Source: Bacilli bacterium (GTDB lineage: Bacteria; Bacillota_I; Bacilli_A; RFN20; CAG-826). From it: a DNA stretch of 64,000 nucleotides. Below are positions 35,996-50,964 of this stretch, one piece after another. Where the stretch lies: the NCBI GenBank assembly GCA_017468925.1, contig JAFUHI010000009.1, forward strand, positions 274,162-338,161, given 5' to 3'. Made by a program: the position numbers and the translations under genes. Each line of letters opens with the position of its first letter. Position 1 is the first letter of the stretch. The notes under the pieces were generated by a model. The model did not search any database, was not told the origin of the DNA, and was given only the letters and a program-made list of their open reading frames with translations.

Positions 35996-37847
35996 GGCGA
36001 AACAAAGGAGCGGGAAACTTTCATTCTCGTTTTTTATCGTTTTTTCAACACTTTTCGCTGTGACATTGATGTTTGCATCTAGGCTATCAAGTGAGCTTCT
36101 TTTGAATGGGAATCGTTTCTTATATTTGATAGTTGCAAGTGGAGCCAGTGTTGGGCTTTTCTTATTGTCCTTCATATGCGGAATTTCATATAGAAAAGCA
36201 GGGGAAAACAAATTCAATCAATCTGTGTCGAAATGGAAGGTGTTTATCGCCTTTGTTATTTTAACTGCATCATTTTTCGCATTGTATTTCTGTTACGGTT
36301 ACATTGAAAAGTTATTTGAATCGACGAATACGAATGAGTACACGAACATAACAATGTTTTCTTTTGTCTTTGCCGCCTCCCTCTTCATCGTTTTCATGAA
36401 CATTATTTTCTTGAGAAAAGTAAAACCAAAAGAGCCTCATATCCCAGTCCTTTCGCTTAAATATGAGCCGTATGAAAAGGCTTTGAAGGAGAAAAAACCA
36501 TTTGGTTTTGCAAAAGTCGTTAACGCATTGACACCTTATGTTCTTTGCATCTATGCCTTGATGGTCTTCATCCCTTGGGTCTGCAAGCCGTATGATGGGT
36601 TATATAACATCCTCAATGGAAAAAGCTTTTCTCTAATTTATCGTCTTATTGAAGCGGGGGTGTTCGTTGTTTGGATGCTGCTAATAATGATTTTCAACAA
36701 GAAAGCTCCCGAATTAAATAAATGGCTTTTGTTTGCTTTGATTGGCGGGATGCTCGCTTTTGTGGCGTTTACCAGTGATGTCAAATTTGTCCATGAGTCT
36801 ATGGAAGTTGTTTTGACGAAGAAGGATATAGTTGTACATTATGCGAACATATATTTCGCTTTATTCTTTGCTTTTTCGGCAATGTTCATCATCCCAATAG
36901 CGAAATGCAATGTTCATTCCAAAAACTTGATTCTCTGGCTTTTCTTGCTTATTGGTGTGGCCTCAATTGCTTTTAGTTTCTATAAAGAGTTTGATATGTA
37001 TAAAGAGACTTTGACTCATTTCTCAAGCAAATATAGCGATGAAGTCACATCCTTCTATAAGAGCAAAAATGTTTACGGCGTTATAGTGATGATTTCATTT
37101 GTCTCGTCCACCGTGCTTGCCTTCCAAAAGAAGCGGGTTTTACGCGTGATTTTGCTTGTTTATACATTCTTAGCGGTGGTTTTAACCGGAATAATTTTCT
37201 GCACGACAGCCTTCCTATCCGGCATCGCGTTGATAGCGTTTATGATAATTTGGTTCTTCGTAAAATATGTTAGAAGACACCCAATCACGCTTTCAATAAT
37301 TTATTCTTTGGTTATCTCCGCGATAATAGTGGTTGTCCTTTTCATAACCATCCCAGAACTATATGAATTGAATTCCGTTCTGACTGAATTTAACAAGATG
37401 CTATTCAGAACAAAATTCGCCGATAGGATAACGATTTGGGAACGATTATTTGAAAATTTGGGCGGAAACAAGAATTTCGCCGGAAATGGTTTGATTACTT
37501 TATATTATTTCCCGTTGATTCGTGACAACGTCGTTCAATTGAAAGCGCTGCACAATGGTTATTTGAATCTTTTCGCTTTCGGCGGGGTTGTCTATTTGTC
37601 GTTCTACATTTATATCGTTTTCGATTCATTTAGAAACATTCATCGCTTTAAGAAGTTCGGCAAAAAGCCAATGGCCTTGGCGATTGCATCAATAATTGCT
37701 GCGATGATGGTGTATTCCTTTGCCGAATCAAATGTCATTGGACTTGATTCATCTATCATCGCCCTTTTGCCTTCCCTGGTTGCTCTTACATTCCCAAAAT
37801 GGTATATGCCAGAATTCAAGAAAGAATGGTTGTCTCAGGATATATAA
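35982..37847 (+). CDS. Second large polytopic membrane protein (Wzy-like / unknown)
   Basis: 621 aa hydrophobic protein. Overlaps the previous gene by 14 nt. No soluble catalytic domain recognised. Confidence 0.3.
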   Translation: MEEIKAKQRSGKLSFSFFIVFSTLFAVTLMFASRLSSELLLNGNRFLYLIVASGASVGLFLLSFICGISYRKAGENKFNQSVSKWKVFIAFVILTASFFALYFCYGYIEKLFESTNTNEYTNITMFSFVFAASLFIVFMNIIFLRKVKPKEPHIPVLSLKYEPYEKALKEKKPFGFAKVVNALTPYVLCIYALMVFIPWVCKPYDGLYNILNGKSFSLIYRLIEAGVFVVWMLLIMIFNKKAPELNKWLLFALIGGMLAFVAFTSDVKFVHESMEVVLTKKDIVVHYANIYFALFFAFSAMFIIPIAKCNVHSKNLILWLFLLIGVASIAFSFYKEFDMYKETLTHFSSKYSDEVTSFYKSKNVYGVIVMISFVSSTVLAFQKKRVLRVILLVYTFLAVVLTGIIFCTTAFLSGIALIAFMIIWFFVKYVRRHPITLSIIYSLVISAIIVVVLFITIPELYELNSVLTEFNKMLFRTKFADRITIWERLFENLGGNKNFAGNGLITLYYFPLIRDNVVQLKALHNGYLNLFAFGGVVYLSFYIYIVFDSFRNIHRFKKFGKKPMALAIASIIAAMMVYSFAESNVIGLDSSIIALLPSLVALTFPKWYMPEFKKEWLSQDI

Positions 37848-37850
37848 AAC

Positions 37851-39494
37851 ATGGATGAAAACAACGTAAAAATAAACGAGAAAAAAGAGACAAAGAACAT
37901 CAAAATCGGTGTTGTTCTTTCTTATGTAAGGCTAATCATCCTTGTCGCCGTAAGCATTTTCTATCCTCCATTTTTGGTCGCAAGCATTGGCAAAGAATTA
38001 AATGGCTTATATCAATTTGCCGCTTCAATCCCTGGTTGGCTTGCCTTACTTTCTTTAGGCACTGAAAATGCATATGTAAGATTTGCTACGATTGCTGAAG
38101 AAAAAGGTGGTGAGGAAGAATTAAAGAAGGTCAACGGGTTCTTCTTGATCTTCTTTGGGCTTATTGCCCGTTTGGTTACGCTTGTTGGGGTTGGGGTTGC
38201 ATTTGCCTATCGGTTCGATATTTTGCATTTTGAAAGTGAATCAAGCGATCTCAATGGGCTTTTGGCCATATTAATCATCATCCTTGTTGTTTCTTGGGCG
38301 ATTGATTTTGCCACAGGCATATTTGCTAGATACATTTATTTCAGGGCTCGTTTTGCCTGGAATCAGCTGTTGAGGATATTGGCTAGAGTTATTATTGTCG
38401 GTGGCGCAGTCGCTGCATGTTTGCTTTTCAAAGATAAGCAGATAGAAGCAACGATAGGTGTTGCATTAGCAACGTTAATTGCCCAAATAGTGCTAGATTT
38501 TGGTAATGCCTTTCTTTCAATCAAAAAACTAAAGATGCGTTTTTCCTTTTCTGGCGGAGAGTATTTCAAAAAGATGCTTGGGCAAGTCATTGTCTTCTCC
38601 GTTTTCATTTTCTTGGTGATTATTTTTAATACTGTGAATCTGTATCTGGGAAGGACTGCTTTGGGAAGCCTTTATACAGTTTCCGCAGTAACGATATTTG
38701 CATATTCTATCCAGTTCTATGATTATGGGGAAATCATATCGAAATCAGTTTCTGATAATTTCGCCCCAAGGATTAATAGATACGTCGTTCAGAATAGAGA
38801 TGAAGAGATTAGGAAACTTTTCTTACGTGTTTCCGCAATTCAAATGGTCATCATGTTCCTTGTTGTCGGCGGCTTTATCGCCTGCGGTAGGGAATTTGTC
38901 TATGCATGGATGAGTAAATCTGGCATGGTGGGAGCGGATAAAGACGCTTTATTCTTCATGTCTGCGGCATTGCTAATCATCTGGCTTATACCATTCTGCC
39001 AGGCTTTGGGCGTGGAAATCCAAAGAGCATATAACAAACATAAATTTATTGCTGTATTTAATATCGGTGCTGCGATAGTGAATATCATCTTGACCGTCGT
39101 TCTGGTTAAATTTTTGCCTGATGATTTGAAGATCTATGGCCCAGTAATAGGCATGGCTGTAGCGGTCATTGCCGGAATGGTTGTTGCCTCAAACATCTAT
39201 TATTCAAAGGTTATCAAATTGCCGATAGGGAAGTTCTTTATTTATTTTGGTGTGATGCTTTTAATCACGTCATTTGCTGCAGGTATGACATATCTTTTAT
39301 ACCATTTCGTCAAACTTCCTGAAGACATGAATAAATGGTATGTCACAATCATTAGAGCAGTGACGTTTGTTGTTTTGTATATACCGCCGACCGCGATTGT
39401 TTTCAGAAAAGAAATAAAAGCCAAAATCGATGCTTTTAAGAATAGGCACAACAATAATAAAGACGATGAAGAAGCCAAAACGGAAAATAAATAG
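37851..39494 (+). CDS. Polysaccharide flippase-like MOP/Wzx-family membrane protein
   Basis: 547 aa protein with about 12-14 TM helices and a Lys-rich N-terminus, as typical for Wzx/MATE-like polysaccharide exporters. Assigned by topology and context. Confidence 0.5.
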   Translation: MDENNVKINEKKETKNIKIGVVLSYVRLIILVAVSIFYPPFLVASIGKELNGLYQFAASIPGWLALLSLGTENAYVRFATIAEEKGGEEELKKVNGFFLIFFGLIARLVTLVGVGVAFAYRFDILHFESESSDLNGLLAILIIILVVSWAIDFATGIFARYIYFRARFAWNQLLRILARVIIVGGAVAACLLFKDKQIEATIGVALATLIAQIVLDFGNAFLSIKKLKMRFSFSGGEYFKKMLGQVIVFSVFIFLVIIFNTVNLYLGRTALGSLYTVSAVTIFAYSIQFYDYGEIISKSVSDNFAPRINRYVVQNRDEEIRKLFLRVSAIQMVIMFLVVGGFIACGREFVYAWMSKSGMVGADKDALFFMSAALLIIWLIPFCQALGVEIQRAYNKHKFIAVFNIGAAIVNIILTVVLVKFLPDDLKIYGPVIGMAVAVIAGMVVASNIYYSKVIKLPIGKFFIYFGVMLLITSFAAGMTYLLYHFVKLPEDMNKWYVTIIRAVTFVVLYIPPTAIVFRKEIKAKIDAFKNRHNNNKDDEEAKTENK

Positions 39495-39540
39495 CATTAT
39501 TTATTAATAAAATATGCAATAATCGTAAGGAGGAAACCAT

Positions 39541-40566
39541 ATGAAAGACATATTCGAAGGCAAGACTCTTCTCATAACTGGAGGAACTGGATCTTTTGGT
39601 CACGCAGTTGTTGATAGATTCTTAAATACCGGCATCAAAGAGATCAGGATTCTATCCAGGGATGAAAAGAAACAGGATGACATGAGAAAGTTTTATGACA
39701 ATCCTAAACTCAAATTCTATATTGGTGATATTCGCGATTATAATGCAATAAAAGGTGCATTTTCTGGCGTGGATTTTGTTTTCTCCGCAGCTGCGTTAAA
39801 ACAAGTTCCATCCTGTGAATTCTATCCGATGGAAGCGGTAAAAACTAACATAATCGGTTCAGATAACGTCATTACCGCCTGTGTTGAAAACCATGTTAAA
39901 AAAGCGATTTTCTTATCCACTGATAAGGCGGCGTATCCAATTAATGCGATGGGGATGACAAAGGCTTTGATGGAGAAAAACGTTATCGCAAGATCGAGAC
40001 AATTAAAAGAAGGCGATACTATTTTATGTTTAACTAGATATGGCAATGTCATGGCAAGCAGAGGCAGTGTCATTCCTCTATTCTTGAACCAAATCAGCGA
40101 AGGGAAACCTCTTACTATAACGAACCCTGAAATGACAAGATTTATGATGACATTAGATGATGCCGTTTCGTTGGTTATGTTTGCGTTCGAACACGGAGAG
40201 CAAGGCGACTTGTTTGTACAAAAAGCCCCTGCAGCGACTATAGAGACACTTGCTAAATCCGTCATTGAGTTAAGTGGAAAAGACGCAAAAATTGAATACA
40301 TCGGAACTAGACACGGTGAAAAACTTTTTGAGACTTTGGTGACTCAAGAAGAAATGCTTAGAGCGGTAGATGAAGGGGACTTCTATAGGATTTGCGCAGA
40401 TAATCGCGATTTGAATTACGATAAATTCTTTACCAAAGGCGAGAGCAAATTGAATATAGGAGAATCATATACATCGCACAATACCGAAAGACTTGATGTT
40501 GAAGGCATGAAAAAGCTTTTGAAAAAATTAGAGTTGTTCGGTGGTGAGGTCAAACAACACGATTAA
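39541..40566 (+). CDS. fnlA: UDP-N-acetylglucosamine 4,6-dehydratase/5-epimerase (FnlA/Cap5E/WbjB family)
   Basis: 341 aa protein. N-terminus (LLITGGTGSFGHAVVDRFL...IRILSRDEKKQ) and the YGNVMASRGSVIPLF block are characteristic of the CapE/FnlA subgroup of the CapD/PseB extended-SDR family. Confidence 0.8.
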   Translation: MKDIFEGKTLLITGGTGSFGHAVVDRFLNTGIKEIRILSRDEKKQDDMRKFYDNPKLKFYIGDIRDYNAIKGAFSGVDFVFSAAALKQVPSCEFYPMEAVKTNIIGSDNVITACVENHVKKAIFLSTDKAAYPINAMGMTKALMEKNVIARSRQLKEGDTILCLTRYGNVMASRGSVIPLFLNQISEGKPLTITNPEMTRFMMTLDDAVSLVMFAFEHGEQGDLFVQKAPAATIETLAKSVIELSGKDAKIEYIGTRHGEKLFETLVTQEEMLRAVDEGDFYRICADNRDLNYDKFFTKGESKLNIGESYTSHNTERLDVEGMKKLLKKLELFGGEVKQHD

Positions 40567-40569
40567 TGT

Positions 40570-41688
40570 ATGAAAGTATTGGTCACTGGTTCAAAAGGAT
40601 TTATAGGAAAAAATCTATGCCTATGGCTTGAAAATGCCGGGCACGATGTTTTAGGTTTTGACATAAATGAAAGCATTGAAACGTTAAAATCCTATGTTGA
40701 ATCAGCGGATTTCATAGTTCATCTCGCTGGAGTGAATCGCCCGCTTAATGAAGAAGAATTCATAGATGGTAATGTCAATTTCACAAAGCAATTACTTGAT
40801 ATAGTCGAGGATAAAAAATCATCTGCTTCTATAATCTTTTCTTCCAGCGTGAAAGCCGAGGAAGATAGCACTTATGGAAGAAGCAAATTGCAGGCGGAGA
40901 AACTTGTTGAGGAATTCGGCAAGAAGAACGGAAACAATGTCTTCATTTATAGATTGAATAACGTTTTTGGCAAATGGTGCAGGCCAAATTACAACTCTGT
41001 TATTGCGACATTCTGCTACAACGTTGCGCACGAAATAGAGCTCCAAATTAATGAAAACGCATTGCCGATAGAGTTTATTTATATAGATGATATTTGCAGG
41101 CAATTTCTTAAAACAATCAAAGAAAACCCCGTAGAACACGCTTCAATTTTGTATATTGAGCCAAAATACAAGAGGTCATTAAAGGATATTGCTTACAGTT
41201 TGTATTCATTCAAAGAATCAAGAAAGAGTTTCATGGTTCCGAACATAGTCGATGATTTTGATAAGAAACTATATTCAACATATCTCTCTTATCTTGATGA
41301 AGATGACTTTTCCTATCCTTTGACGACGCATAGCGACTATAGAGGATCGTTTACAGAGATATTGAAAACAAATGGTGCAGGCCAATTTTCGGTTAATATC
41401 TCCAAACCAGGAATCGTTAAAGGGAATCATTATCACAACACCAAAAACGAGAAATACCTTGTTGTTGCCGGAACCTGCGAGATTAAGTTTAGAAAAATAG
41501 GTACATCAAAAATATTTACTTATGTTTGCAGTGATAAGGAATTGAAGGTTGTAGACATCCCACCAGGATATACACATTCTATAAAGAACATTGGCAAAAC
41601 AGATTCAGTCACATTCATGTGGGCGAATGAATTATATGATCCAGACAATTCGGATACATTTTATTTACCAGTAGAGGAAACAAAATGA
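40570..41688 (+). CDS. fnlB: UDP-2-acetamido-2,6-dideoxy-hexos-4-ulose reductase (FnlB/Cap5F/WbjC family; N-terminal SDR plus C-terminal cupin)
   Basis: 372 aa protein. Rossmann VTGSKGFIGKNL. The C-terminal His-rich cupin (GNHYHNTKNEKY) with this length and domain order matches Cap5F. Confidence 0.75.
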   Translation: MKVLVTGSKGFIGKNLCLWLENAGHDVLGFDINESIETLKSYVESADFIVHLAGVNRPLNEEEFIDGNVNFTKQLLDIVEDKKSSASIIFSSSVKAEEDSTYGRSKLQAEKLVEEFGKKNGNNVFIYRLNNVFGKWCRPNYNSVIATFCYNVAHEIELQINENALPIEFIYIDDICRQFLKTIKENPVEHASILYIEPKYKRSLKDIAYSLYSFKESRKSFMVPNIVDDFDKKLYSTYLSYLDEDDFSYPLTTHSDYRGSFTEILKTNGAGQFSVNISKPGIVKGNHYHNTKNEKYLVVAGTCEIKFRKIGTSKIFTYVCSDKELKVVDIPPGYTHSIKNIGKTDSVTFMWANELYDPDNSDTFYLPVEETK

Positions 41689-42812
41689 GCAAGAAATATA
41701 AAGTGATGACAATTTTGGGCACTAGACCAGAAATCATACGTCTTTCTGAAGTCATCAAAAAATGTGATAAAGAATTTGATCATATTTTGGTTCATACAGG
41801 CCAAAACTACGCATACGAATTGAATGAAATCTTTTTCAAGCAACTAGGGCTTAAATCACCTGATTATTATTTGAACGCGGTCGGGAGAGACCTGGGTGAA
41901 ACCATGGGCAATGTCATCGCGAAGTCATATGACCTAATAAAAGAAGTTAAACCAGATGCGGTTTTGATTTTAGGCGACACCAATAGCGCGCTCTCCGCCA
42001 TTTCAGCGAAAAGGCTCAAAACCCCGATATTCCATATGGAAGCGGGAAATAGATGTTGGGATTGGAATGTCGCTGAGATGACGAACCGAACCATCGTTGA
42101 TCATATTTCCGACATAAACATGCCTTATAGCCATGTCGCGTATGATAATTTGGTCAATGAAGGACTGCCAAAGAATAGAATCATCAGAACCGGTTCCCCA
42201 ATGAAGGAAGTAATTCTAGCCCATAAGGATGAAATAGAAAAAAGCGATATTTTAAATCGACTTGGATTGAAGAAGGATCATTACATAGTCGTTTCTGCAC
42301 ATAGAGAAGAGAATGTAGATATTGAATCCAAGTTCAATAGACTCTATCCATCACTAAATCGCATCGCTGATGAATATGGGATGCCAGTTGTTTTCAGCGT
42401 CCATCCACGTACCAAAAAGAGATTCGAGGACAGGGGCTTTAAACTATCGAATAATATAATCGATTCAAAGCCGTTTGGCCTTTTTGAATACGAGAAACTC
42501 CAAGAAAACGCATATGTGGTTTTGAGCGATAGCGGAACCCTGACTGAAGAATCATCATTGCTTGATTTCCCTGCAGTTCTCATTCGAACATCGACAGAAA
42601 GACAAGAAGGATGCATTCACGGTTCAATTGTTATCGGAGGTGTAGATTACGACACAATTAGACCTTCAATTGACTTAGCTAGGAAATTGCATAGAAACGG
42701 AAACAATAAGGTTGTTCCGGATTATGATACAACCGATGTTTCGGAGATTGTGGTGAATACGATCAAAGAATACACCGATGTCATAAATAAAGAAACGTGG
42801 CTTAAAGAATAA
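41685..42812 (+). CDS. fnlC: UDP-N-acetylglucosamine 2-epimerase, non-hydrolysing (FnlC/Cap5G/WbjD)
   Basis: 375 aa protein. N-terminus (KVMTILGTRPEIIRLSEVI) and the HVHTGQNY block are typical of the WecB/Cap5G family. Confidence 0.8.
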   Translation: MSKKYKVMTILGTRPEIIRLSEVIKKCDKEFDHILVHTGQNYAYELNEIFFKQLGLKSPDYYLNAVGRDLGETMGNVIAKSYDLIKEVKPDAVLILGDTNSALSAISAKRLKTPIFHMEAGNRCWDWNVAEMTNRTIVDHISDINMPYSHVAYDNLVNEGLPKNRIIRTGSPMKEVILAHKDEIEKSDILNRLGLKKDHYIVVSAHREENVDIESKFNRLYPSLNRIADEYGMPVVFSVHPRTKKRFEDRGFKLSNNIIDSKPFGLFEYEKLQENAYVVLSDSGTLTEESSLLDFPAVLIRTSTERQEGCIHGSIVIGGVDYDTIRPSIDLARKLHRNGNNKVVPDYDTTDVSEIVVNTIKEYTDVINKETWLKE

Positions 42813-42862
42813 AATTCTTTGGTTGTAAGTAAAATTAATAAAGGTAAAATTAACAAGTCTAA

Positions 42863-43921
42863 ATGGAAAATAACAAGCATCTTGTAACAATAGTCATCCC
42901 TATCTATAATTCTGAGCCTTTTATCCATAGGTTTTTCGAGGCATTAGACGCTCAGACGTTTAAGGATTTTAAAGTCATTTTTGTCTATGACCATTCAACG
43001 GATCACACCCACGCAGCCTATAAACGTGAGATGGTATATTTCAGCGATTTAGACATTAAAGTGCTTCATAAACCTGAATGTGAAGGCGTTGGAAAAGCTA
43101 GGGATTATGCAATCGAATCGGGTTTGTTAGATACAAAATACACCTTGTTTTTAGATATAGACGATATACCAAGGCCAACGCTTCTTGAGAAATTGGTAAA
43201 AAAAGCCGAAGAGGAAAACGCCGATGTTACAATATGCGGTTACCAAAGAGTGAATTTGGAGACTGGAAAAAGAATTGCGACCGAGATGGTCAACAATCCT
43301 GAAATAATCGATGACCCCCAGCACAATCTGGTAATGCCGTTTATTAACCCTGCTCCATGGAATAAATTGATTAAAACTGAGCTGATTGGTGATGCAAGAT
43401 TCATTTATAGAGGAGGCTCTGGCGAAGATGCCATGTTCTTCCTTAAAGTAATGCCTAATTGCAAAAAGCTCGTTTTCATAAATGAAGTTTTGTATACATA
43501 TTTGGTCAGGCATGGCTCGAATGCTGACAAGACGAACTTATCATCATTAGAAGAAACCAAAAAGGGATATATTGATACACTGCAGTTCTACAAAGACAAA
43601 GGTGGTGTTTTCAATGAATTCATTCCGTTGCTTGAGTCTTTTGTTGTTCTTCATATGGCAATCGGAACAACAACAAGAGTCTGCATATCTAATCCAAAAG
43701 AAAAAAGAAAGATAATCGCCTTATCTAGGAAATATATGGTTGAGAATTTCCCTCATTGGAAAAAGAACAAGTTCTTATCGTTCTGGAACTGTATAAGACT
43801 TGGATTTAAGGGCTTGATGGTCAGAAGCTGTCTCAATCTTTATAAAATGCATATGTTTGGTGTCTTTGTGTGGGCCTACAAGACATATACTGGCCTCTTC
43901 AAAAAGGATATTAAGTGGTAA
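42863..43921 (+). CDS. Family 2 glycosyltransferase
   Basis: 352 aa protein. GT-A N-terminus (VTIVIPIYNSEPFI) and a DxD-like LDIDD. Confidence 0.7.
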   Translation: MENNKHLVTIVIPIYNSEPFIHRFFEALDAQTFKDFKVIFVYDHSTDHTHAAYKREMVYFSDLDIKVLHKPECEGVGKARDYAIESGLLDTKYTLFLDIDDIPRPTLLEKLVKKAEEENADVTICGYQRVNLETGKRIATEMVNNPEIIDDPQHNLVMPFINPAPWNKLIKTELIGDARFIYRGGSGEDAMFFLKVMPNCKKLVFINEVLYTYLVRHGSNADKTNLSSLEETKKGYIDTLQFYKDKGGVFNEFIPLLESFVVLHMAIGTTTRVCISNPKEKRKIIALSRKYMVENFPHWKKNKFLSFWNCIRLGFKGLMVRSCLNLYKMHMFGVFVWAYKTYTGLFKKDIKW

Positions 43922-45435
43922 TGAATGGCCATAAAACACGTAAATTATTTGTTTATCCTTTCATTGTTTTGTTTTTGAATGCATGTCGTTTTCCAGTCGC
44001 GGAAAAAGATGTAATCTTTAAAGAAACAATTAATCTTAACGTCCTTGATCATATTGATATAAGAGAAGCAAAATTGAAGAAACATTATTCAGATGAAGGT
44101 TTCACGTTGCTATATGAAAAAGAACTCTTTGAGTCAGGCTTTGTCAAATTCAAACAGGCTGGCACAAATGGCAATAAGTATGGAGTAAAGTTTTTATACA
44201 ATGGTTTGAACACCGCCAAATACAGTTATAACAAATATGAAGTTATAATATCAAAGTGCAATGGCAACTATATAGCTTTAGCCGATGCAAATGACGAAGA
44301 AAAAATCGACATATATGATTTCGAAGGGAGAATAGTATTTCAGGGTGTTGAAAAAGACGCATCAATTAGTTTGGATACGGAGATTGTTGAACTTGAATTA
44401 AGGGAAGAAGCCTTGCTTGAAAGATGGACAATCAATGATTCTGATGAATACAAAATCGTTAATAAATATAATATTCGTTCATCAAAAATCCCTGCAAATC
44501 TGCTTTTAAAAACAAAAAACGGAGAATATTATCCTTGCGAAAGCCCACTGGATTCAATAGGTTTGAGTCATAAGACCGGTTCAATTTCTAAAGAAGGTCT
44601 ATTTTCTTGTGGAAATGCCTCGTTTGCGATACCCGCTTATGATGTGGGCGCTTTTGTTTGGAAGTCCTTCGTGTTTCAAGAGAATGAAGATGAAATGGTT
44701 ACTTCTGGTCGATTTGATATTTTAACAGGTGAGAAACATATATTTGATTTCGATAAAAAAATCGAATCCATCAGGCTAATAAAAGATATCTATGGGCAAG
44801 ACAAATATATGCTTGCGGATATTGACGATGAAAGACATTCAAGGCTTGTTCTAGATAATGAGTTTAAGGTTGTTATCGATGTGACGGATTCATCCGCAGC
44901 ATATTGCAACGATCTTGAAAAATTAACGAACTTTATATTCTTTTCAAAAGAAAAAAACGCTATTGTTGATTATCTTGCGGATGAGTCATTTAGTTTAGAA
45001 GGAAAACCGACATCGTATTCATATTCGTTAAAGACATTCGCGGTCCAAAAAGATGACGGAAATGTTTATTTGGTTGATTTGGAAAACAAACGCGGAAAAG
45101 ACCTTGGAACCCTTAGTGACGTGAATATTAAATATCCTAATTACAAGAAAGGAATTGCGAAAAACCAAGAAGGAAAATTTGTTTGCATTGATATAGAAGA
45201 AAAAACGGCAGAACTGTCTTCTTTCCAACCAGAAGAATGGTTCGATACCGACATCGGTATTATTGTTTACCAAAGCGATGATGATCTTGTATTCAACGGG
45301 TACAGCGACAACATTTTAACTTCTTTAGAAGGAGAATTAATTGAGGCCAAGTCGTTTAACACATATGCAACAAAGTATTCAGTATTTTCAGTGAATATGG
45401 GCTCATATACACAGCTGCTAAGTATTTATCTCTGA
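43915..45435 (+). CDS. Hypothetical lipoprotein embedded in the glycan locus
   Basis: 506 aa protein. N-terminal signal with a lipobox-like LNAC (KLFVYPFIVLFLNAC). The remainder is hydrophilic with no recognisable domain. Confidence 0.4.
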   Translation: MVMNGHKTRKLFVYPFIVLFLNACRFPVAEKDVIFKETINLNVLDHIDIREAKLKKHYSDEGFTLLYEKELFESGFVKFKQAGTNGNKYGVKFLYNGLNTAKYSYNKYEVIISKCNGNYIALADANDEEKIDIYDFEGRIVFQGVEKDASISLDTEIVELELREEALLERWTINDSDEYKIVNKYNIRSSKIPANLLLKTKNGEYYPCESPLDSIGLSHKTGSISKEGLFSCGNASFAIPAYDVGAFVWKSFVFQENEDEMVTSGRFDILTGEKHIFDFDKKIESIRLIKDIYGQDKYMLADIDDERHSRLVLDNEFKVVIDVTDSSAAYCNDLEKLTNFIFFSKEKNAIVDYLADESFSLEGKPTSYSYSLKTFAVQKDDGNVYLVDLENKRGKDLGTLSDVNIKYPNYKKGIAKNQEGKFVCIDIEEKTAELSSFQPEEWFDTDIGIIVYQSDDDLVFNGYSDNILTSLEGELIEAKSFNTYATKYSVFSVNMGSYTQLLSIYL

Positions 45436-45475
45436 TTCTAAGCAAATTGTATCTTTTAAAATTAAATATAAAATA

Positions 45476-46609
45476 ATGTCTATGAAATTAATTTGCGTTT
45501 TAACAACCAGACACAATTGTGATGATAACAGAATCTATCACAAAGAAGTCAAAACTCTAGCAGATGCTGGCTACTCAGTTCTCTATATTGCCCCAAACAA
45601 TACCGATAAAGGTTATCAAAATGTAACATACGAATCTATCCCTCTAGTCCCAAGAAAAAAACTGAAGCCAGTTTTTAAACATGTTTATGAGCTCATCACA
45701 AAGAAATATAAGGTTGAATCAGTTCACTTCCATGATCCAGAGATTTTGCCTTTCGCCTGCAAAATAAAGCGCAGAACCAAAATCAAAGTAATATATGACG
45801 TCCATGAAGACTATAAGTCTGAAATGCTCATAAAACTTTACCTTTCCAAAATTGAAAAGAAATTATTCTATACGGTCGTTTCTCATTATCAAAAGAAAGC
45901 CGATAAAAAATTTGATGCAATAGTGAATGCAGATAACTTTGTCGCAGAGGAATTTCACAACAAAAACAAAATCATTTTGTTTAATTATCCGGATGTATCT
46001 AACCTACCAGAAACCTATGTAAAAGATATAAGGGAGAGGAATGATTTTGATATCATTTTCCCTGGCACAATAAACCCCTTTATTTTCAAGATGATGATGG
46101 ATATGACTAGGATTTGCAGGGAAAAAGGCCATCCAATAAGGTGTTGCATCATCACTGAATATAGATACAAAAAAGACCAAGATGATAATTTGGCGTATAT
46201 GGAATCATCCGGCGTAAACAAGGATGATGTTACTTTATTGCCGCGCATACCAACCAAGGAAGTCCCTTTGTATTTGAACAGGACAAAACTTGGGGTTGCG
46301 CCATTGCCAGATAATCCTAAATTTAGAAAAAACATCGCCACAAAGATGTTTGAATACATGTATTATTACCTTCCAGTGCTGACAAGCGACTTGCCGCCTG
46401 CCAAACAGTATTTGGACGTAACAAATTCCGGTTATTTAATTAAATATGATGACGCTGAAGCCTACGCGGATAAGATTATTTATTTGTTGAACAATCCAGA
46501 TGTCGCAAATGAGATGGGCAAGACAGGGCACGACAAAGTGGCCTCAAGCTGGAATTGGTCGACAGAGAAAGAAAAACTCATCGAACTATACAAAACATTA
46601 CTAGGTTAA
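45476..46609 (+). CDS. GT-B fold glycosyltransferase (family 4-like)
   Basis: 377 aa protein. C-terminal half shows the GT4 pattern (E...FEYMYYYLPVLTSD...; EX7E-like region). Confidence 0.6.
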   Translation: MSMKLICVLTTRHNCDDNRIYHKEVKTLADAGYSVLYIAPNNTDKGYQNVTYESIPLVPRKKLKPVFKHVYELITKKYKVESVHFHDPEILPFACKIKRRTKIKVIYDVHEDYKSEMLIKLYLSKIEKKLFYTVVSHYQKKADKKFDAIVNADNFVAEEFHNKNKIILFNYPDVSNLPETYVKDIRERNDFDIIFPGTINPFIFKMMMDMTRICREKGHPIRCCIITEYRYKKDQDDNLAYMESSGVNKDDVTLLPRIPTKEVPLYLNRTKLGVAPLPDNPKFRKNIATKMFEYMYYYLPVLTSDLPPAKQYLDVTNSGYLIKYDDAEAYADKIIYLLNNPDVANEMGKTGHDKVASSWNWSTEKEKLIELYKTLLG

Positions 46610-46652
46610 AACCTGGTTTGTTGATATAAAATTTTGTAATTGTATAATTTTC

Positions 46653-47987
46653 TTGTATAACAAGAGGCTTTTTATGAATAACTACAATAATCTTATCGAA
46701 AAGAAATCTAATCTAGCTGTAATTGGGCTTGGATATGTTGGTATGCCAATCGCAGTTCAATTTGCAAAAAAAATTAACGTAATCGGATTCGACATCAACG
46801 ATTCCAAGATAAATGAATATAAAAAAGGACATGACGTCACCAAAGAAGTCGGCGATGAGGAACTAGCAAAAACAACACTGAAATTTACATCTAAAGAAAG
46901 TGAACTAAAGAACATCAATTTCTTTATTGTCGCCGTGCCAACCCCAATTAATTTGGATAAAACACCAGATTTAACCCCTGTGGTAGGCGCTTCAGAAGTT
47001 GTCGGTAGAAATATAGAAAAAGGGTCGATTGTGGTTTTCGAATCAACAGTTTATCCAGGTGTCACCGAAGATGTTTGCGTCCCAATCATTGAAAAATTAT
47101 CAGGATTAAAAGCCGGTAAGGATTGGTGGATTGGTTATTCTCCAGAAAGAATTAACCCCGCTGATAAAGTTCACCGCCTTTGGAACATCAAAAAAGTCGT
47201 ATCTGGCATGGATAAAGAAAGCTGTGACGAGATCGCAAAAGTATACGAGTTGGTTGTCGAGGTAGGCGTCCATAAAGTATCATCTATCAAAACCGCGGAG
47301 GCCGTTAAAGTTGTAGAAAACTCCCAAAGAGACATTAATATCGCTTTCATGAATGAACTTGCAATGGTGTTTGACCGCATGGGAATAGATACCAAAGAGG
47401 TCGTTGAAGGCATGAATACAAAATGGAATGCATTAGGCTTTATGCCGGGTCTTGTTGGCGGCCATTGCATAGGCGTTGATCCATATTATTTCACATACGA
47501 AGCCGAAAAACTCGGCTATCATTCGCAAATTATTCTTGCTGGACGCAAGGTTAATGATGATATGGGCAATTTCGTGGCAGAAAGAACCGTACGTCAAATG
47601 ATTAAATCAGGTGTAGATGCCTCAAAAGCCAGGGTTTTGATACTAGGCGCTACATTTAAAGAAAACTGCCCAGATATAAGAAACTCAAAAGTATTTGATA
47701 TTTACGATGGACTCAAGGGTTTTGGCATTAAACCAGATGTATTTGACGATAATGCAAACCCCGAAGAAATCGAAAAAGAGTATGGTGTCAAACCAATAAC
47801 TAAAGATAATCTTAATGGTTATGATTGCGTGATTCTTGCTGTTGCACACGAGTCATTTAAGAGCCTTCCGATCGAAAAAATATTCAATCAAAAATTAGTC
47901 AACGAAAAAAGAGTTATTATAGATGTTAAGAGCATCTTGGACAAAGATGAATATCTACGCAAAGGATATTCGTTCTGGCGCCTATAA
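46653..47987 (+). CDS. UDP-sugar (UDP-N-acetyl-hexosamine) 6-dehydrogenase, UDP-glucose/GDP-mannose dehydrogenase family
   Basis: 444 aa protein. N-terminal NAD-binding site (VIGLGYVGMPIAVQF) and a catalytic Cys region (GGHCIGVDPYY). Confidence 0.8.
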   Translation: MYNKRLFMNNYNNLIEKKSNLAVIGLGYVGMPIAVQFAKKINVIGFDINDSKINEYKKGHDVTKEVGDEELAKTTLKFTSKESELKNINFFIVAVPTPINLDKTPDLTPVVGASEVVGRNIEKGSIVVFESTVYPGVTEDVCVPIIEKLSGLKAGKDWWIGYSPERINPADKVHRLWNIKKVVSGMDKESCDEIAKVYELVVEVGVHKVSSIKTAEAVKVVENSQRDINIAFMNELAMVFDRMGIDTKEVVEGMNTKWNALGFMPGLVGGHCIGVDPYYFTYEAEKLGYHSQIILAGRKVNDDMGNFVAERTVRQMIKSGVDASKARVLILGATFKENCPDIRNSKVFDIYDGLKGFGIKPDVFDDNANPEEIEKEYGVKPITKDNLNGYDCVILAVAHESFKSLPIEKIFNQKLVNEKRVIIDVKSILDKDEYLRKGYSFWRL

Positions 47988-48045
47988 TATAACAACAAAC
48001 AGCTGAAGCAATTCCTATCATTAACGCATACACGCAAGCTATAAT

Positions 48046-48084
48046 GCGCATCATACAAGCGAAACTGTAAGATGCGCTTTTTAT
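48046..48084 (+). terminator. Rho-independent terminator after the dehydrogenase gene
   Basis: Hairpin GCGCATC-(17 nt loop)-GATGCGC followed by TTTTTATTT. Confidence 0.55.
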
Positions 48085-48280
48085 TTATTATCGAGCACAG
48101 ATTATGATCATTAACATGTTTATTTCTAAATTGAATTCACAGATTGGTTTCGACAGAAATCATGCTAAACTAAATAAACAAAATTAGTTTTTCAAGTTTA
48201 TATAAATATAAACTATATAATGAAAATAAAAATGGTTGCATAAATAAATATTTTCTAAAAATGGTTTCATATATTATAAT

Positions 48281-49111
48281 ATGCTTATGAATGAAAAATG
48301 TTACGCGTTAATATGTGATGCAGTCGGTTCTATGAAGCTTTCAAGGGATGAATGGGAACTCCTCGACGAAAGACTAAATTTGACTAAAAAAGTTATATCA
48401 GCATATTTTCAAACGGACTTATGTTCTGATGTTATTCTTTCTGGCGGTGATGGTTTGGAAGCCCTGTTTACGAATCTTAATTCCTGCGCAGAAGCCTTTT
48501 ATCTAATTTCATCAATTATGTTTCCATTTAAAATGAGGGGTGGAATTGGTGCTGGACATGTTTCTAAAAAAACAGTCAATGCCAACACTGTTGATTGCCC
48601 CGGTGCATTCTTTAAAGCGAGGTCTGCTTTGAACGCAACTAAGGAGGATGAGAAAACCCTATACTTTTATATAGATTCCTTCTCTGATGATACAAACTAT
48701 GGGGGTTTGATTAATTCCTCGTTTTCACTATTGTCTCTTCTTACCAAGCATCAAAGGGAAGTATTCAATCTGTTTTGTTTTTTGTCTCCAGTCTCAAATT
48801 CGTCTAGACCTTCGTTCCTAAAACCGCTTTTGCTTCAAAAGTTTATTGATGGTGGCATAGAGAACGGTTTAAGCAATATAGATAAACAAGTTTATGTGAA
48901 AACAATTAATGAAATTAAGAAACGCGAATTGGAGATGCTTGAATGCAAATACTCTTTTCCGCCTTTTATGAATGTGATTGTTGCCAATTTGTGCTCTAGC
49001 TCAAGACAAAATATATCTAAGGCGAAAAAATCTGGCATTTTTGATATTATTAAAACAATGCAAGTAGTTTCCTTGGATTTAATAAGCGATTATGACCATA
49101 AAAATAAGTGA
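48281..49111 (+). CDS. Nucleotide-cyclase-like (class III adenylyl-cyclase/GGDEF palm-like, possibly SatD-like) protein
   Basis: 276 aa protein. In order along the sequence: a hydrophobic strand ending in Asp (YALICDAVGS), a hydrophobic-GDG motif (VILSGGDGLEALF) and an RxGIxxGxV motif (KMRGGIGAGHVSKKTV). These match the three palm-domain signature blocks of class III cyclases. The fold assignment is inferred from motifs only. Confidence 0.4.
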   Translation: MLMNEKCYALICDAVGSMKLSRDEWELLDERLNLTKKVISAYFQTDLCSDVILSGGDGLEALFTNLNSCAEAFYLISSIMFPFKMRGGIGAGHVSKKTVNANTVDCPGAFFKARSALNATKEDEKTLYFYIDSFSDDTNYGGLINSSFSLLSLLTKHQREVFNLFCFLSPVSNSSRPSFLKPLLLQKFIDGGIENGLSNIDKQVYVKTINEIKKRELEMLECKYSFPPFMNVIVANLCSSSRQNISKAKKSGIFDIIKTMQVVSLDLISDYDHKNK

Positions 49112-50177
49112 ATTAGTTATAAAAAGTGGGTCGAAAGATCTAGGTCAAGAACCAATTACTTTTAATTTTTATAACGGCATAAACGAGCTTTCATTTAGAA
49201 AACGAGTCGCGTTTGATGTTCTTTCTTTTGGGTTTGAAGAGATAGTCTCTGGTTCTATTGATATCGGCGGAACTATCATCAATAGTGAAACCAATTCAAG
49301 GGCAAATCTATTTTTGATGCTCATCAATATTAAAAAGGTCGGAAAATTCTTTTGTTTGTTCCCTCTAGGGGAAGACCAAGAAACAAGAAAAAACGACATT
49401 ATTAATAAGATCTCTGAGCATAAATTTGAAAGAGTGGACACACACGATCAAAAAGAAGCAAAACTTAAATCTGTTATAAATGATTTGAATTCATTTGGTT
49501 GTTTGTATGTGCTCATCAATAGAAACGAATACGCTAATAAAGACAACATCGATATGCTTTATGATTGCTTTTCTGGTGTCTTGATGCCAGTTTTGTTTTT
49601 AATGCCTCCGGTGACTTCCAAGAAAGAAATACCTCAGCAGCCGAACAAAAAGGGCAAGGAAATAGAAACAAAAGCAAAATATGCAGCAAAAAGTGACAAC
49701 GATGCAAAGTATTATCAAGTTCAGTTTACAAAAGCTAACCTATCAGACATCAGATCAATGTACATCTTTTTCCTCGTGTTCCCATTGATATTCATCGTTT
49801 GTCTTGGGGTTGCGGTGAACTCCATTGAAAGTCAAAATGCAGTGAGGGCGGTAATAACAATTCTCATTTCTGTATTGTGCTTGGGGATGCATTTATATAA
49901 TTCATCCACCATCAAGCACCCTTCTAAAGACTCAATGGGACAACTGATTCTAGAGTTTACTTCATCAGCCTTTAGTCTAGTAGGATGCGGTTTATCTTGC
50001 CTTGTTATTTTCTTATTGGCGAATTCCAATATTTTATTCGCGATGGAATCATTCGATCATGTTTTGATCATATGCATTGTGGTGTTTTCTATTCTTTGTA
50101 TCATTTTGCCTTTCTTTGCAATCCATTTGAGAAAAGTATTTGCCAAAATTGCTAATATGTTCAAAAAGAAAAACTAA
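49092..50177 (+). CDS. Hypothetical protein: 210-aa soluble N-terminal domain plus four C-terminal TM helices
   Basis: 361 aa protein. Overlaps the upstream cyclase-like gene by 20 nt. The N-terminal domain has no confident family. It contains an FGFEEI...SRAN stretch faintly reminiscent of a cNMP-binding phosphate-binding cassette. The C-terminal 150 aa are hydrophobic. Confidence 0.4.
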   Translation: MTIKISELVIKSGSKDLGQEPITFNFYNGINELSFRKRVAFDVLSFGFEEIVSGSIDIGGTIINSETNSRANLFLMLINIKKVGKFFCLFPLGEDQETRKNDIINKISEHKFERVDTHDQKEAKLKSVINDLNSFGCLYVLINRNEYANKDNIDMLYDCFSGVLMPVLFLMPPVTSKKEIPQQPNKKGKEIETKAKYAAKSDNDAKYYQVQFTKANLSDIRSMYIFFLVFPLIFIVCLGVAVNSIESQNAVRAVITILISVLCLGMHLYNSSTIKHPSKDSMGQLILEFTSSAFSLVGCGLSCLVIFLLANSNILFAMESFDHVLIICIVVFSILCIILPFFAIHLRKVFAKIANMFKKKN

Positions 50178-50238
50178 TATATTCACTTATTTGCGCAATG
50201 CATCTATAATTGAAGTCGTTAAAAGGAGATATTAACCT

Positions 50239-50964
50239 ATGGTTAAATTAGTATTAATAAGACACGGACAATCGGAATGGAATTTAGAGAATAAATTCAC
50301 CGGTTGGACTGATGTCAATTTGAGTGAACAAGGAGTAAGAGAAGCCATTGAAGCCGGAGAATACCTAAAACAAGGCGGATACACATTCGATGTCGCTTTT
50401 AGTTCCATTTTGAAAAGAGCTAACAGAACAATGGATTTGGCTTTGGAGGCTCTTGGCGAATCAAATATAGAAAAGCATTACACTTGGAGACTTAATGAAA
50501 GACATTACGGCGCTCTCCAAGGGTTAAACAAGGCAGAATCCGCCGTTAAATGGGGGAATGAGCAAGTCCATTTATGGAGAAGAAGTGCTGATATCCAACC
50601 TCCAGCCTTAACAAAAGAAGATCCAAGATTCCCAGGTAACCAAGATCTTTATAAGAAACTTGTTGAATCTGGCGATATGAAAGAAGAGGAGTTGCCACTT
50701 ACTGAATGCTTAATTGACACAGTAGCCCGTGTAAAGCCATACTTCGATTCTGATATCGCTCCAGCAATCAAAGAAGGCAAAAAGGTCTTAATCGTAGCGC
50801 ATGGCAATAGTTTAAGAGCCTTGGTCATGGAGCTTGAGCACCTAAACGCTGAACAAATAATTTCTGTTGAAATCCCCACCGGAAACCCGCTCGTTTACGA
50901 ACTAGACGAGAAAACCCTAGCTGTTTTAAACAAATATTATTTGAAACCAGTCGCTGGGAAATAG
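50239..50964 (+). CDS. gpmA: 2,3-bisphosphoglycerate-dependent phosphoglycerate mutase
   Basis: 241 aa protein. Histidine phosphatase signature LIRHGQSEWN and the RLNERHYG block. Confidence 0.9.
   Translation: MVKLVLIRHGQSEWNLENKFTGWTDVNLSEQGVREAIEAGEYLKQGGYTFDVAFSSILKRANRTMDLALEALGESNIEKHYTWRLNERHYGALQGLNKAESAVKWGNEQVHLWRRSADIQPPALTKEDPRFPGNQDLYKKLVESGDMKEEELPLTECLIDTVARVKPYFDSDIAPAIKEGKKVLIVAHGNSLRALVMELEHLNAEQIISVEIPTGNPLVYELDEKTLAVLNKYYLKPVAGK

Follow-up and report, generated by a model that had tools for sequence, protein, structure and literature searches.

A divergent SatD-family protein with a cyclase-like palm domain, a putative operator and an exchanged membrane partner in a Bacilli bacterium

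SatD and SatE were named in 2001 for the last two genes of the sat operon of Streptococcus mutans, and genes annotated as such occur in many genomes of anaerobes from the gut, the mouth and the environment. The corresponding Pfam families are PF16264 for SatD and PF11750 (DUF3307) for SatE, and the searchable literature holds no functional, structural or mechanistic statement on either protein. Here we describe a related gene pair in a 64,000-nucleotide (nt) stretch of DNA, hereafter the window, from a Bacilli bacterium (GenBank assembly GCA_017468925.1, contig JAFUHI010000009.1). The pair comprises an open reading frame (ORF) of 276 amino acids (aa) at positions 48281-49111 and one of 361 aa at 49092-50177, both on the forward strand, the products of which we term protein 1 and protein 2. 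The ORF coordinates agree with a preliminary description of the window, which had outlined a two-gene cassette with a 20-nt overlap as a candidate signalling or defence module.

We propose that the pair constitutes an autoregulated bicistron, in which a SatD-type one-component regulator, combining a nucleotide site in a palm domain with a helix-turn-helix (HTH) domain, is encoded together with a lineage-specific membrane partner that replaces SatE; we give this proposal roughly an even chance of being correct. The arrangement resembles, by analogy and not by homology, BlaI/BlaR1 and sigma/anti-sigma pairs, in which a repressor or regulator is matched with a membrane sensor. There too, an autoregulated bicistron provides for the joint expression of a DNA-binding protein and its membrane partner, whereas the putative DNA-binding protein of the window has a nucleotide-cyclase-like domain. 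Fusions of cyclase and HTH domains exist, the mycobacterial Rv0386-type proteins being one example. A small palm-domain protein encoded next to a membrane protein is also the layout of Panoptes (mCpol with a 2TM-beta or CARF-transmembrane effector) and of Pycsar (PycC with a transmembrane or TIR effector).

The Pfam SatD profile matched protein 1 at 26.2 bits (E 7e-6) over residues 9-146 only, which falls short of the 29-bit gathering threshold of the family. Precomputed database annotation lists the protein as SatD or 'SatD (weak)', and no match was obtained in NCBIfam or PADLOC. A word-indexed search with protein 1 returned, besides the query, only a single fragment of 57% identity. An exhaustive HMMER search of 1.84 billion representatives identified 178 relatives at E < 1e-3, 18 of them at E < 1e-10, most of which are full-length proteins of 270-300 aa with 24-32% identity to protein 1. 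All 65 aligned relatives matched Pfam SatD (best E 2e-24). Searches of JGI metagenomes and viral contigs, and tblastn searches of phage and plasmid sequences, did not yield any closer relatives of the protein 1 subfamily, and searches of PDB sequences with both full proteins or with profiles returned nothing significant. On these profile matches, protein 1 is a divergent member of the SatD family, an affiliation that had been raised earlier as a possibility.

Alignment of the SatD family outlined four conserved blocks (D-I-x-x-S-R, S-(A/G)-G-D-(E/S)-x-Q-G-L-F, I-R-x-G-I-G-x-G and D-G-x-A-Y-H-x-A-R) and a further S/T-R-Q-N-I block near the C-terminus. Protein 1 has the D-x-x-x-S, GGD, R-x-G-I-G-x-G and A-R elements together with the C-terminal SRQNI segment, and of the 39 family positions with a conservation of 85% or more, it retains 22, including D13, S17, G56, D57, R86, G88, G90, G92, A113, R114, R242 and Q243.

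To place these blocks in a structural context, we examined an AlphaFold model of protein 1 built from 75 homologues (predicted local distance difference test, pLDDT, 86.8; predicted template modelling score, pTM, 0.87). Residues 5-131, which correspond approximately to positions 48293-48673 (+), form a beta-alpha-beta-beta-alpha-beta unit followed by a hairpin, a helix and a strand, and the remainder of the protein is all-helical, with a linker leading to the C-terminal HTH. Foldseek searches against the PDB returned 31 matches at E < 1e-3, which comprise 30 class III adenylyl cyclases and one Cas10-containing type III CRISPR effector (9l7c). The best match was bPAC (E 4.4e-5), and others were Ma1120, Rv1900c, OaPAC and CyaC; Ma1120 and Rv1900c align with a target-normalised TM-score of ~0.5 and a root-mean-square deviation of 3.0-3.7 Å over 122-133 alignment columns. 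Just above the 1e-3 cutoff lie more cyclases, the guanylyl cyclase Cya2, the Cas10 proteins Cmr2 and Csm1, the Panoptes protein mCpol (9pd0, E 1.3e-3) and a GGDEF enzyme, and the matches in the viral structure library BFVD are guanylate cyclase and GGDEF proteins only. The model thus indicates that the N-terminal domain of protein 1 is a class III nucleotidyl-cyclase/GGDEF palm fold. The three palm-domain signatures that the preliminary description had recognised are indeed present in order, with YALICD at residue 8, VILSGGDGLEALF at 51 and RGGIGAGHVSKKTV at 86.

Comparison with cyclases of known structure points to a putative nucleotide site in this domain. Despite a weak sequence score (E 1.5), the SatD family profile could be aligned to Rv1900c, placing SAGD on TAGD, which contains the second metal-binding Asp, and IRxGIGxG on VRIGIHAG, in the same register that is implied by the fold match. 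D13, D57 and R86 vary little or not at all across the family. D13 and D57 are the presumed metal-binding Asp pair, with the equivalence of D13 read solely from its position in strand beta1 of the model, and R86 is the candidate phosphate-binding Arg. R86 and R114 are the presumed counterparts of the beta4 and alpha4 Arg residues. Protein 1 shares with class III adenylyl and guanylyl cyclases (Rv1900c, Ma1120, bPAC, CyaC) the palm fold and the order of secondary-structure elements, and has putative equivalents of the Asp pair and of both Arg residues. It differs from them in the fused short HTH, in that the Pfam Guanylate_cyc model gives no match to protein 1 at E <= 1, and in that the transition-state Asn and the Lys/Asp that specify the substrate are not evident. 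In a mapping based on motifs only, the position of the Asn is occupied by Tyr in the family and by Phe in protein 1, and that of the substrate-specifying Lys by Phe in the family and by Leu in protein 1.

The C-terminal region of protein 1 (residues ~228-276, 48962-49108 on the forward strand, SSRQNISKAKKSG...) is predicted to form an HTH-like domain. In the model it folds into three helices (residues 230-237, 242-251 and 254-275) that hold the SRQNI block of the family. Scans with the C-terminal domains of relatives alone gave weak and repeated matches to HTH families, namely to Sigma70_r4 in four members (best E 4.6e-4) and to HTH_17 in six, and a profile of this domain matched PDB sequences only weakly.

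The presence of a putative DNA-binding domain is paralleled by a conserved motif upstream of satD. The survey comprised 43 loci with a SatD ORF (41 of 42 from a genome scan, plus two others) from Bacillota, Fusobacterium, Coriobacteriia and Spirochaetes. The best direct repeat upstream of satD in these loci repeatedly showed an exact spacing of 29 nt and a GCAAC/GTTGC core. A search over 384 kb for the pattern GCAAY-N23-25-GCAAY and its complement produced 77 matches, 62 of which lie in the ~260 nt that precede satD and come from 33 of the 43 loci; shuffled loci contained 5.9 matches in total. The unit can be described as the palindrome AAAAA-GCAACC-N6-GGTTGC-TTTTT, present in two to five copies with a strict period of 29 bp, and such arrays precede satD in four phyla (L025:101-230, L042:1-105, L023:870-945, L047:4877-4975 and 29 other loci, loci being denoted by L numbers). 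No description of a GCAACC-N6-GGTTGC array upstream of satD was found in the searchable literature. Only satD and the membrane-protein gene satE recur beside these arrays, so the simplest reading is that SatD binds the array as an operator and regulates its own expression. Co-variation between half-sites and the recognition helix fits this reading and is confounded by phylogeny, and hence it was not counted as evidence.

To determine whether the window contains the same element, a weight matrix built exclusively from the arrays of other genomes was scanned on both strands of the 64 kb. The top-scoring site, with 21.7 bits versus 12.8 for the runner-up, lies directly in front of protein 1 at 48216-48245 (ATTTATGCAACCATTTTTATTTTCATTATA on the minus strand), and presents a perfect GCAACC half-site and a degenerate second half. 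The same region contains a tandem 29-nt direct repeat (TAAAAATGGTTGCATA... / TAAAAATGGTTTCATA...) at 48227-48284 (+), which corresponds to two operator units, the second of them overlapping a -10-like box and the start codon. The repeat is kept in sister strains, and remains recognisable upstream of a protein 1 allele with 59% aa identity on contig L049. The combination of an HTH domain and a conserved operator hence argues for a role of protein 1 as a transcriptional regulator.

The position of the start codon is relevant to this arrangement. The first ATG of the ORF (48281) reads AGA or AGG in sister strains, and the conserved start of protein 1 is therefore placed at 48287, giving a protein of 274 aa (48287-49111, +). 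A TATAAT -10-like box, read from the sequence at 48275-48280 (+) and kept in L050 and L053, ends 6 nt before this ATG, and no Shine-Dalgarno sequence is found upstream of 48287. Since the start sits 6 nt past the TATAAT box and lacks a Shine-Dalgarno sequence, the mRNA of protein 1 may be leaderless. No promoter or ribosome-binding site belonging to protein 2 was identified.

The comparative analysis also outlined the partner of SatD in other genomes. In 42 of the 43 surveyed loci, the gene downstream of satD encodes a polytopic membrane protein of 242-266 aa assigned to Pfam DUF3307 (SatE), with a gap of -25 to +17 nt between both genes in 33 of these 42 loci, and DUF3307 is also encoded downstream of satD in two further close relatives of protein 1. 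SatD and its membrane partner therefore form a tight two-gene unit, and no other neighbour recurs across the surveyed loci; an enrichment of homologues near defence islands, proposed earlier as a check on the defence hypothesis, was not observed, and neither was a uniform linkage to ffh/ylxM. Alignment of SatE proteins (~245 aa, ~7 transmembrane (TM) helices) revealed the strongly conserved motifs HxLADFxFQ, SHxxID, DQxxH, GxLER and TAKSIARFKQLEDKxFAEKYLVGTL. The TM helices, for instance in L043:5836-6564, contain near-invariant H10, D14, Q18, H36, H68, D95-Q96 and H99. The near-invariant His, Asp and Gln residues within the membrane and the extreme conservation of the C-terminal segment suggest, at the level of sequence, that SatE acts in the membrane as an enzyme or transporter and has a docking helix on the cytoplasmic side.

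Some loci depart from the two-gene arrangement. Solo satD genes were identified in L008:4307-5864 and L058:256-2371; the former keeps the operator motif upstream and is preceded by an ORF resembling P-loop kinases, and the latter is followed by an iron alcohol dehydrogenase gene. In Clostridium sp. (L005:6001-8814 and L006), an insertion sequence (IS) element with an rve-family transposase lies between satD and satE. A PemK-family toxin gene adjoins the satD-satE pair at L060:2514-2855, a single case that does not recur.

In Streptococcus pyogenes, satD belongs to the accessory genes, being present in 71% of genomes, yet it scored as essential in all transposon screens (PMC11323703). This is how antitoxins, repressors of toxic genes and mCpol in Panoptes behave. 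Kremer et al. reportedly found in 2001 that non-polar satD mutants of S. mutans are viable, which weighs against generalising the essentiality seen in S. pyogenes. The accessory yet essential behaviour, together with the tight coupling of the two genes, the overlap between operator and promoter, the IS element that parts satD from satE in one Clostridium genome and the PemK gene of L060, would fit a toxin-antitoxin-like pair that involves no second-messenger chemistry. Protein 1 would then repress or antagonise a toxic protein 2 (SatE in canonical loci), and its palm domain would serve as a non-catalytic sensor or dimerisation module. We regard this as unlikely, given that strict family-wide conservation of the Asp pair and of the Arg and Gly motifs speaks for a functional nucleotide site and not for a scaffold, that the conserved TM His, Asp and Gln residues make SatE look like an enzyme or transporter instead of a simple pore-forming toxin, and that SatD genes without a partner exist.

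The second gene of the window pair (49092-50177, +) encodes a lineage-specific membrane protein. As anticipated in the preliminary description, hydropathy analysis of protein 2 delineated a soluble region followed by four TM helices. The hydrophilic N-terminal domain, with a Lys-rich linker, spans ~215 aa (49092-49742, +), and the four hydrophobic helices, which are also seen as helices by AlphaFold, occupy residues 218-242, 248-272, 282-311 and 321-360 (49743-50171, +). The linker and the C-terminus are both rich in Lys, which under the positive-inside rule suggests that both ends of the protein are cytoplasmic. The absence of a confident family for the soluble domain was likewise borne out, as protein 2 has no match in Pfam, NCBIfam, PADLOC, PHROGs or PDB sequences. 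A word-indexed search of 5.8 billion proteins retrieved only protein 2 itself, and no relatives were found in viral contigs, JGI metagenomes, phage genomes or plasmids. This orphan status derives from word-indexed and pattern-based searches, the exhaustive HMMER search having covered protein 1 only. A single-sequence AlphaFold model of protein 2 was poor (pLDDT 50.6), and a Foldseek search with this model found nothing, its best match having an E value of 0.25.

The earlier suggestion that the pair could be a SatD/SatE-type module holds for the first gene and fails for the second. Considered as a divergent SatE, protein 2 scored 0.3 bits against the SatE profile, with an hhalign probability of 0.2%, and it contains none of the SatE motifs listed above; no SatE is encoded anywhere else in the 64-kb window. 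The pair thus shares with SatD/SatE loci the features of protein 1, the GCAACC operator with its 29-bp period and a membrane-protein gene that overlaps the 3' end of the satD-type gene. It differs in that protein 1 is sub-threshold and substituted at many conserved positions, in that it is not linked to ffh/ylxM, and in that the place of DUF3307 is taken by an orphan that combines a large cytoplasmic domain with four TM helices.

Other candidate identities for the N-terminal domain of protein 2 were rejected. A stretch with FGFEEI at residue 46 and SRAN at residue 69 had been likened to a phosphate-binding cassette for cyclic mononucleotides (cNMP). In such cassettes, the FGE and R-[ST]-A elements lie roughly 8-10 residues apart. 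They are ~20 residues apart in protein 2, a spacing that looks wrong, and Pfam returned no cNMP-binding match at E <= 1 with either the whole protein or the N-terminal domain. A degenerate ABC ATPase was also discarded (-0.2 bits against a small four-sequence profile, with 49 shuffles scoring as high or higher, and nothing in Pfam). The similarity of residues 85-145 to the P-loop-kinase-like ORF of L008 (11.6 bits, E 0.01 among 1645 ORFs) was too marginal to be retained.

These results bear on the suggestion that the pair has the architecture of Pycsar and related abortive-infection systems, with a nucleotide sensor in protein 2. Under such a reading, protein 1 would be a cyclase or oligonucleotide synthase, and its product would be sensed by the cytoplasmic domain of protein 2, the latter acting as a membrane-disrupting effector, the signal either activating the effector on infection, as in Pycsar and the cyclic-oligonucleotide-based anti-phage signalling system (CBASS), or constitutively keeping it off, as in Panoptes; the replacement of SatE by protein 2 would represent an effector exchange. 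Several observations agree with nucleotide second-messenger immunity of this kind. Protein 1 keeps the palm fold with its presumed metal-binding Asp residues and is encoded beside a TM protein in a self-contained module of variable context; the solved mCpol structure is among its fold matches, and four of the 65 aligned relatives, and not protein 1 itself, weakly match the mCpol Pfam model. One canonical SatD faintly matches PycC (13.5 bits, E 0.0099). Moreover, mCpol and its 2TM-beta effector display toxin-antitoxin-like behaviour (PMC12657230), which is comparable to that of the accessory yet essential satD of S. pyogenes (PMC11323703).

We nevertheless consider an immunity function of this type quite unlikely. 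Neither window protein is matched by any PADLOC model, canonical SatD and SatE proteins give no PADLOC match above noise, and PHROGs returned no meaningful match. Relatives were found neither in phage or plasmid sequences (tblastn) nor in viral contigs, and the pair is surrounded by housekeeping and polysaccharide genes, with no mobile-element or defence genes and hence no defence island. Protein 2 presents no cNMP-binding, SAVED, CARF or beta-barrel signal in Pfam or, using its poor model, in Foldseek, so the proposed nucleotide sensor found no support. Its layout is also reversed with respect to the Panoptes effector, which has TM helices at its N-terminus and, at its C-terminus, a beta-barrel or CARF domain, whereas protein 2 has a soluble N-terminal domain and C-terminal TM helices. 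Lastly, the known signalling cyclases of these systems have neither an HTH nor an operator, in contrast to protein 1, and the key residues of cyclases, namely the transition-state Asn and the specificity Lys/Asp, are not apparent in protein 1. The pair looks like a self-regulated module and not like a recognisable phage-defence system.

Sequence comparison between strains provides independent information on both genes. Between strains ~97.5% identical in DNA, the ratio of non-synonymous to synonymous polymorphism (pN/pS) was 0.03 and 0.01 for protein 1, 0.12 and 0.17 for protein 2, and 0.05 and 0.03 for the downstream gene gpmA. Since these values reflect purifying selection, both ORFs are real genes under functional constraint. 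The second allele of protein 1 is carried by the 1.4-kb contig L049 of a related strain (L049:1-1421 versus window positions 48000-49143). In sliding windows, DNA identity is 55-65% over nearly the whole protein 1 gene and 90-100% from ~49010 onward, a stretch that takes in the first 17 codons of protein 2; in protein 1 itself, identity is 55% for residues 1-245 and 94% for residues 246-276. The jump in DNA identity locates a recombination breakpoint at 48990-49020. The same start peptide of protein 2 follows the divergent allele, and the gene upstream of protein 1 encodes a TagD-like cytidylyltransferase in L049 and a UDP-sugar dehydrogenase in the window. The identity jump and the differing upstream gene thus place protein 1 on the side of a variable polysaccharide locus and protein 2 on the conserved flank, and the limit of the variable locus seems to fall within the 3' end of the protein 1 gene.

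The locus in question spans ~14 kb (34016-47987, +) and contains genes for epimerases, glycosyltransferases and a UDP-sugar dehydrogenase. Its G+C content of 34-39% is below that of the rest of the window, which is consistent with a variable surface-polysaccharide locus. Given that protein 1 is encoded at its 3' edge and, as the L049 allele with its TagD-like upstream gene illustrates, travels with it, protein 1 might regulate the polysaccharide genes, with protein 2 being an unrelated downstream membrane protein. This appears very unlikely to us. The operator matrix identifies a single strong site in 64 kb, and this site precedes protein 1 itself. The polysaccharide genes are set apart from protein 1 by a terminator, and in other genomes SatD relatives show no linkage to polysaccharide loci. 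In addition, the 20-nt overlap and the lack of a promoter or ribosome-binding site for protein 2 argue for coupling of the two genes.

The proposal of an autoregulated bicistron accommodates these observations as follows. Protein 1 would bind the GCAACC/GGTTGC half-sites that recur with a 29-bp period over its own -10 box and start codon, probably as a dimer, given the palindromic nature of the half-sites, and would thereby autoregulate the transcription unit of both genes. Its DNA-binding state would be controlled by a nucleotide that is bound or turned over in the palm domain; with a palm domain, an HTH and an operator, protein 1 most likely acts as an autoregulator that binds or converts nucleotides. 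Protein 2 would be co-transcribed and probably translationally coupled. As it sits in the slot that DUF3307/SatE holds in more than 90% of the family loci, it would act as the regulated membrane partner, possibly feeding back on protein 1.

A number of points weigh against this proposal. We infer DNA binding by protein 1, its nucleotide binding or catalysis and the functional coupling of both proteins indirectly, and what connects protein 1 with protein 2 is limited to the 20-nt overlap, their co-occurrence in two alleles and their position. The existence of solo satD genes indicates that a partner is not always encoded nearby. Homology of the C-terminal domain to HTH families is weak at the sequence level, and the second operator unit is degenerate, scoring -2.7 bits on the matrix. 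As judged from the motif alignment, the transition-state Asn and the specificity Lys have no obvious equivalents in protein 1. Finally, 17 of the 39 strongly conserved positions are changed in protein 1, including R25W, Q29D, N40S, E58G, Q60E, G61A, R74Y, W94V, Y110F, E166C and R258K, and its ligand or activity may therefore differ from that of canonical SatD. Most of these substitutions are shared with the L049 allele, which points to a distinct, constrained subfamily and not to decay. Solo SatD proteins retain the canonical residues, and hence the substitutions are not simply due to the lack of SatE.

From these results, a testable anatomy of the SatD family emerges, in which a palm domain with its conserved, presumed metal site is joined to an HTH at the C-terminus, palindromic operator units are arrayed every 29 bp, and a membrane partner is tightly coupled. 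This family-level combination of cyclase fold, HTH and operator array is of more interest than the window pair itself. The latter is an informative outlier, in which regulator and operator are kept, the partner has been exchanged and many otherwise invariant residues on the surface or adjacent to the active site have changed, and it thus amounts to a natural experiment on which parts of SatD communicate with the partner. A catalytic palm domain would make this a new nucleotide-signalling module, and a non-catalytic one a new class of nucleotide-sensing one-component regulator. A bolder version, to which we assign a low probability, holds that SatD proteins are both active nucleotide-signal synthases and their own transcription factors, the product gating the membrane protein in a guard- or toxin-antitoxin-type circuit as in Panoptes. 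On this view, the window pair would represent a branch with a swapped effector, DUF3307 having given way to a new effector with a sensor and four TM helices, and SatD would represent a widespread, uncatalogued signalling or immunity family in Bacillota, Fusobacteriota, Actinomycetota and Spirochaetota.

The boundaries of the transcription unit were examined in the flanking sequence. Of the two terminators between which the pair had been placed, the upstream one was confirmed. The intrinsic terminator of the UDP-sugar dehydrogenase gene (48046-48089, +), which forms the 5' boundary of the unit, comprises a hairpin at 48046-48077 of -15.4 kcal/mol (z -2.77 versus shuffles) followed by the U-run UUUUUAUUUAUU. 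The downstream one was not found, as shuffled versions of the 61-nt spacer between protein 2 and gpmA fold equally well (z 0.11). This spacer contains a promoter-like site for gpmA (TTCACT-17-TATAAT, 50182-50210, +) identified in the promoter scan. A terminator-like hairpin followed by a T-run is also present within the coding region of protein 2 (49573-49600, +), and the count of such elements is that expected by chance (1 versus 1.3 expected). An Rfam scan of 47800-50400 gave only sub-threshold noise. The AT-rich pocket noted earlier corresponds to a G+C content that is lower than, and only mildly different from, that of the window genes (35% versus a mean of 40.3 +/- 3.1%), and similar to that of the adjacent polysaccharide genes. 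The pair is preceded by these polysaccharide-biosynthesis genes and followed by gpmA and by genes for an epimerase, a patatin, a desulfoferrodoxin, HlyIII and SmpB. An identical locus is present in several assemblies of one 'Bacilli bacterium' lineage of metagenome-assembled genomes.

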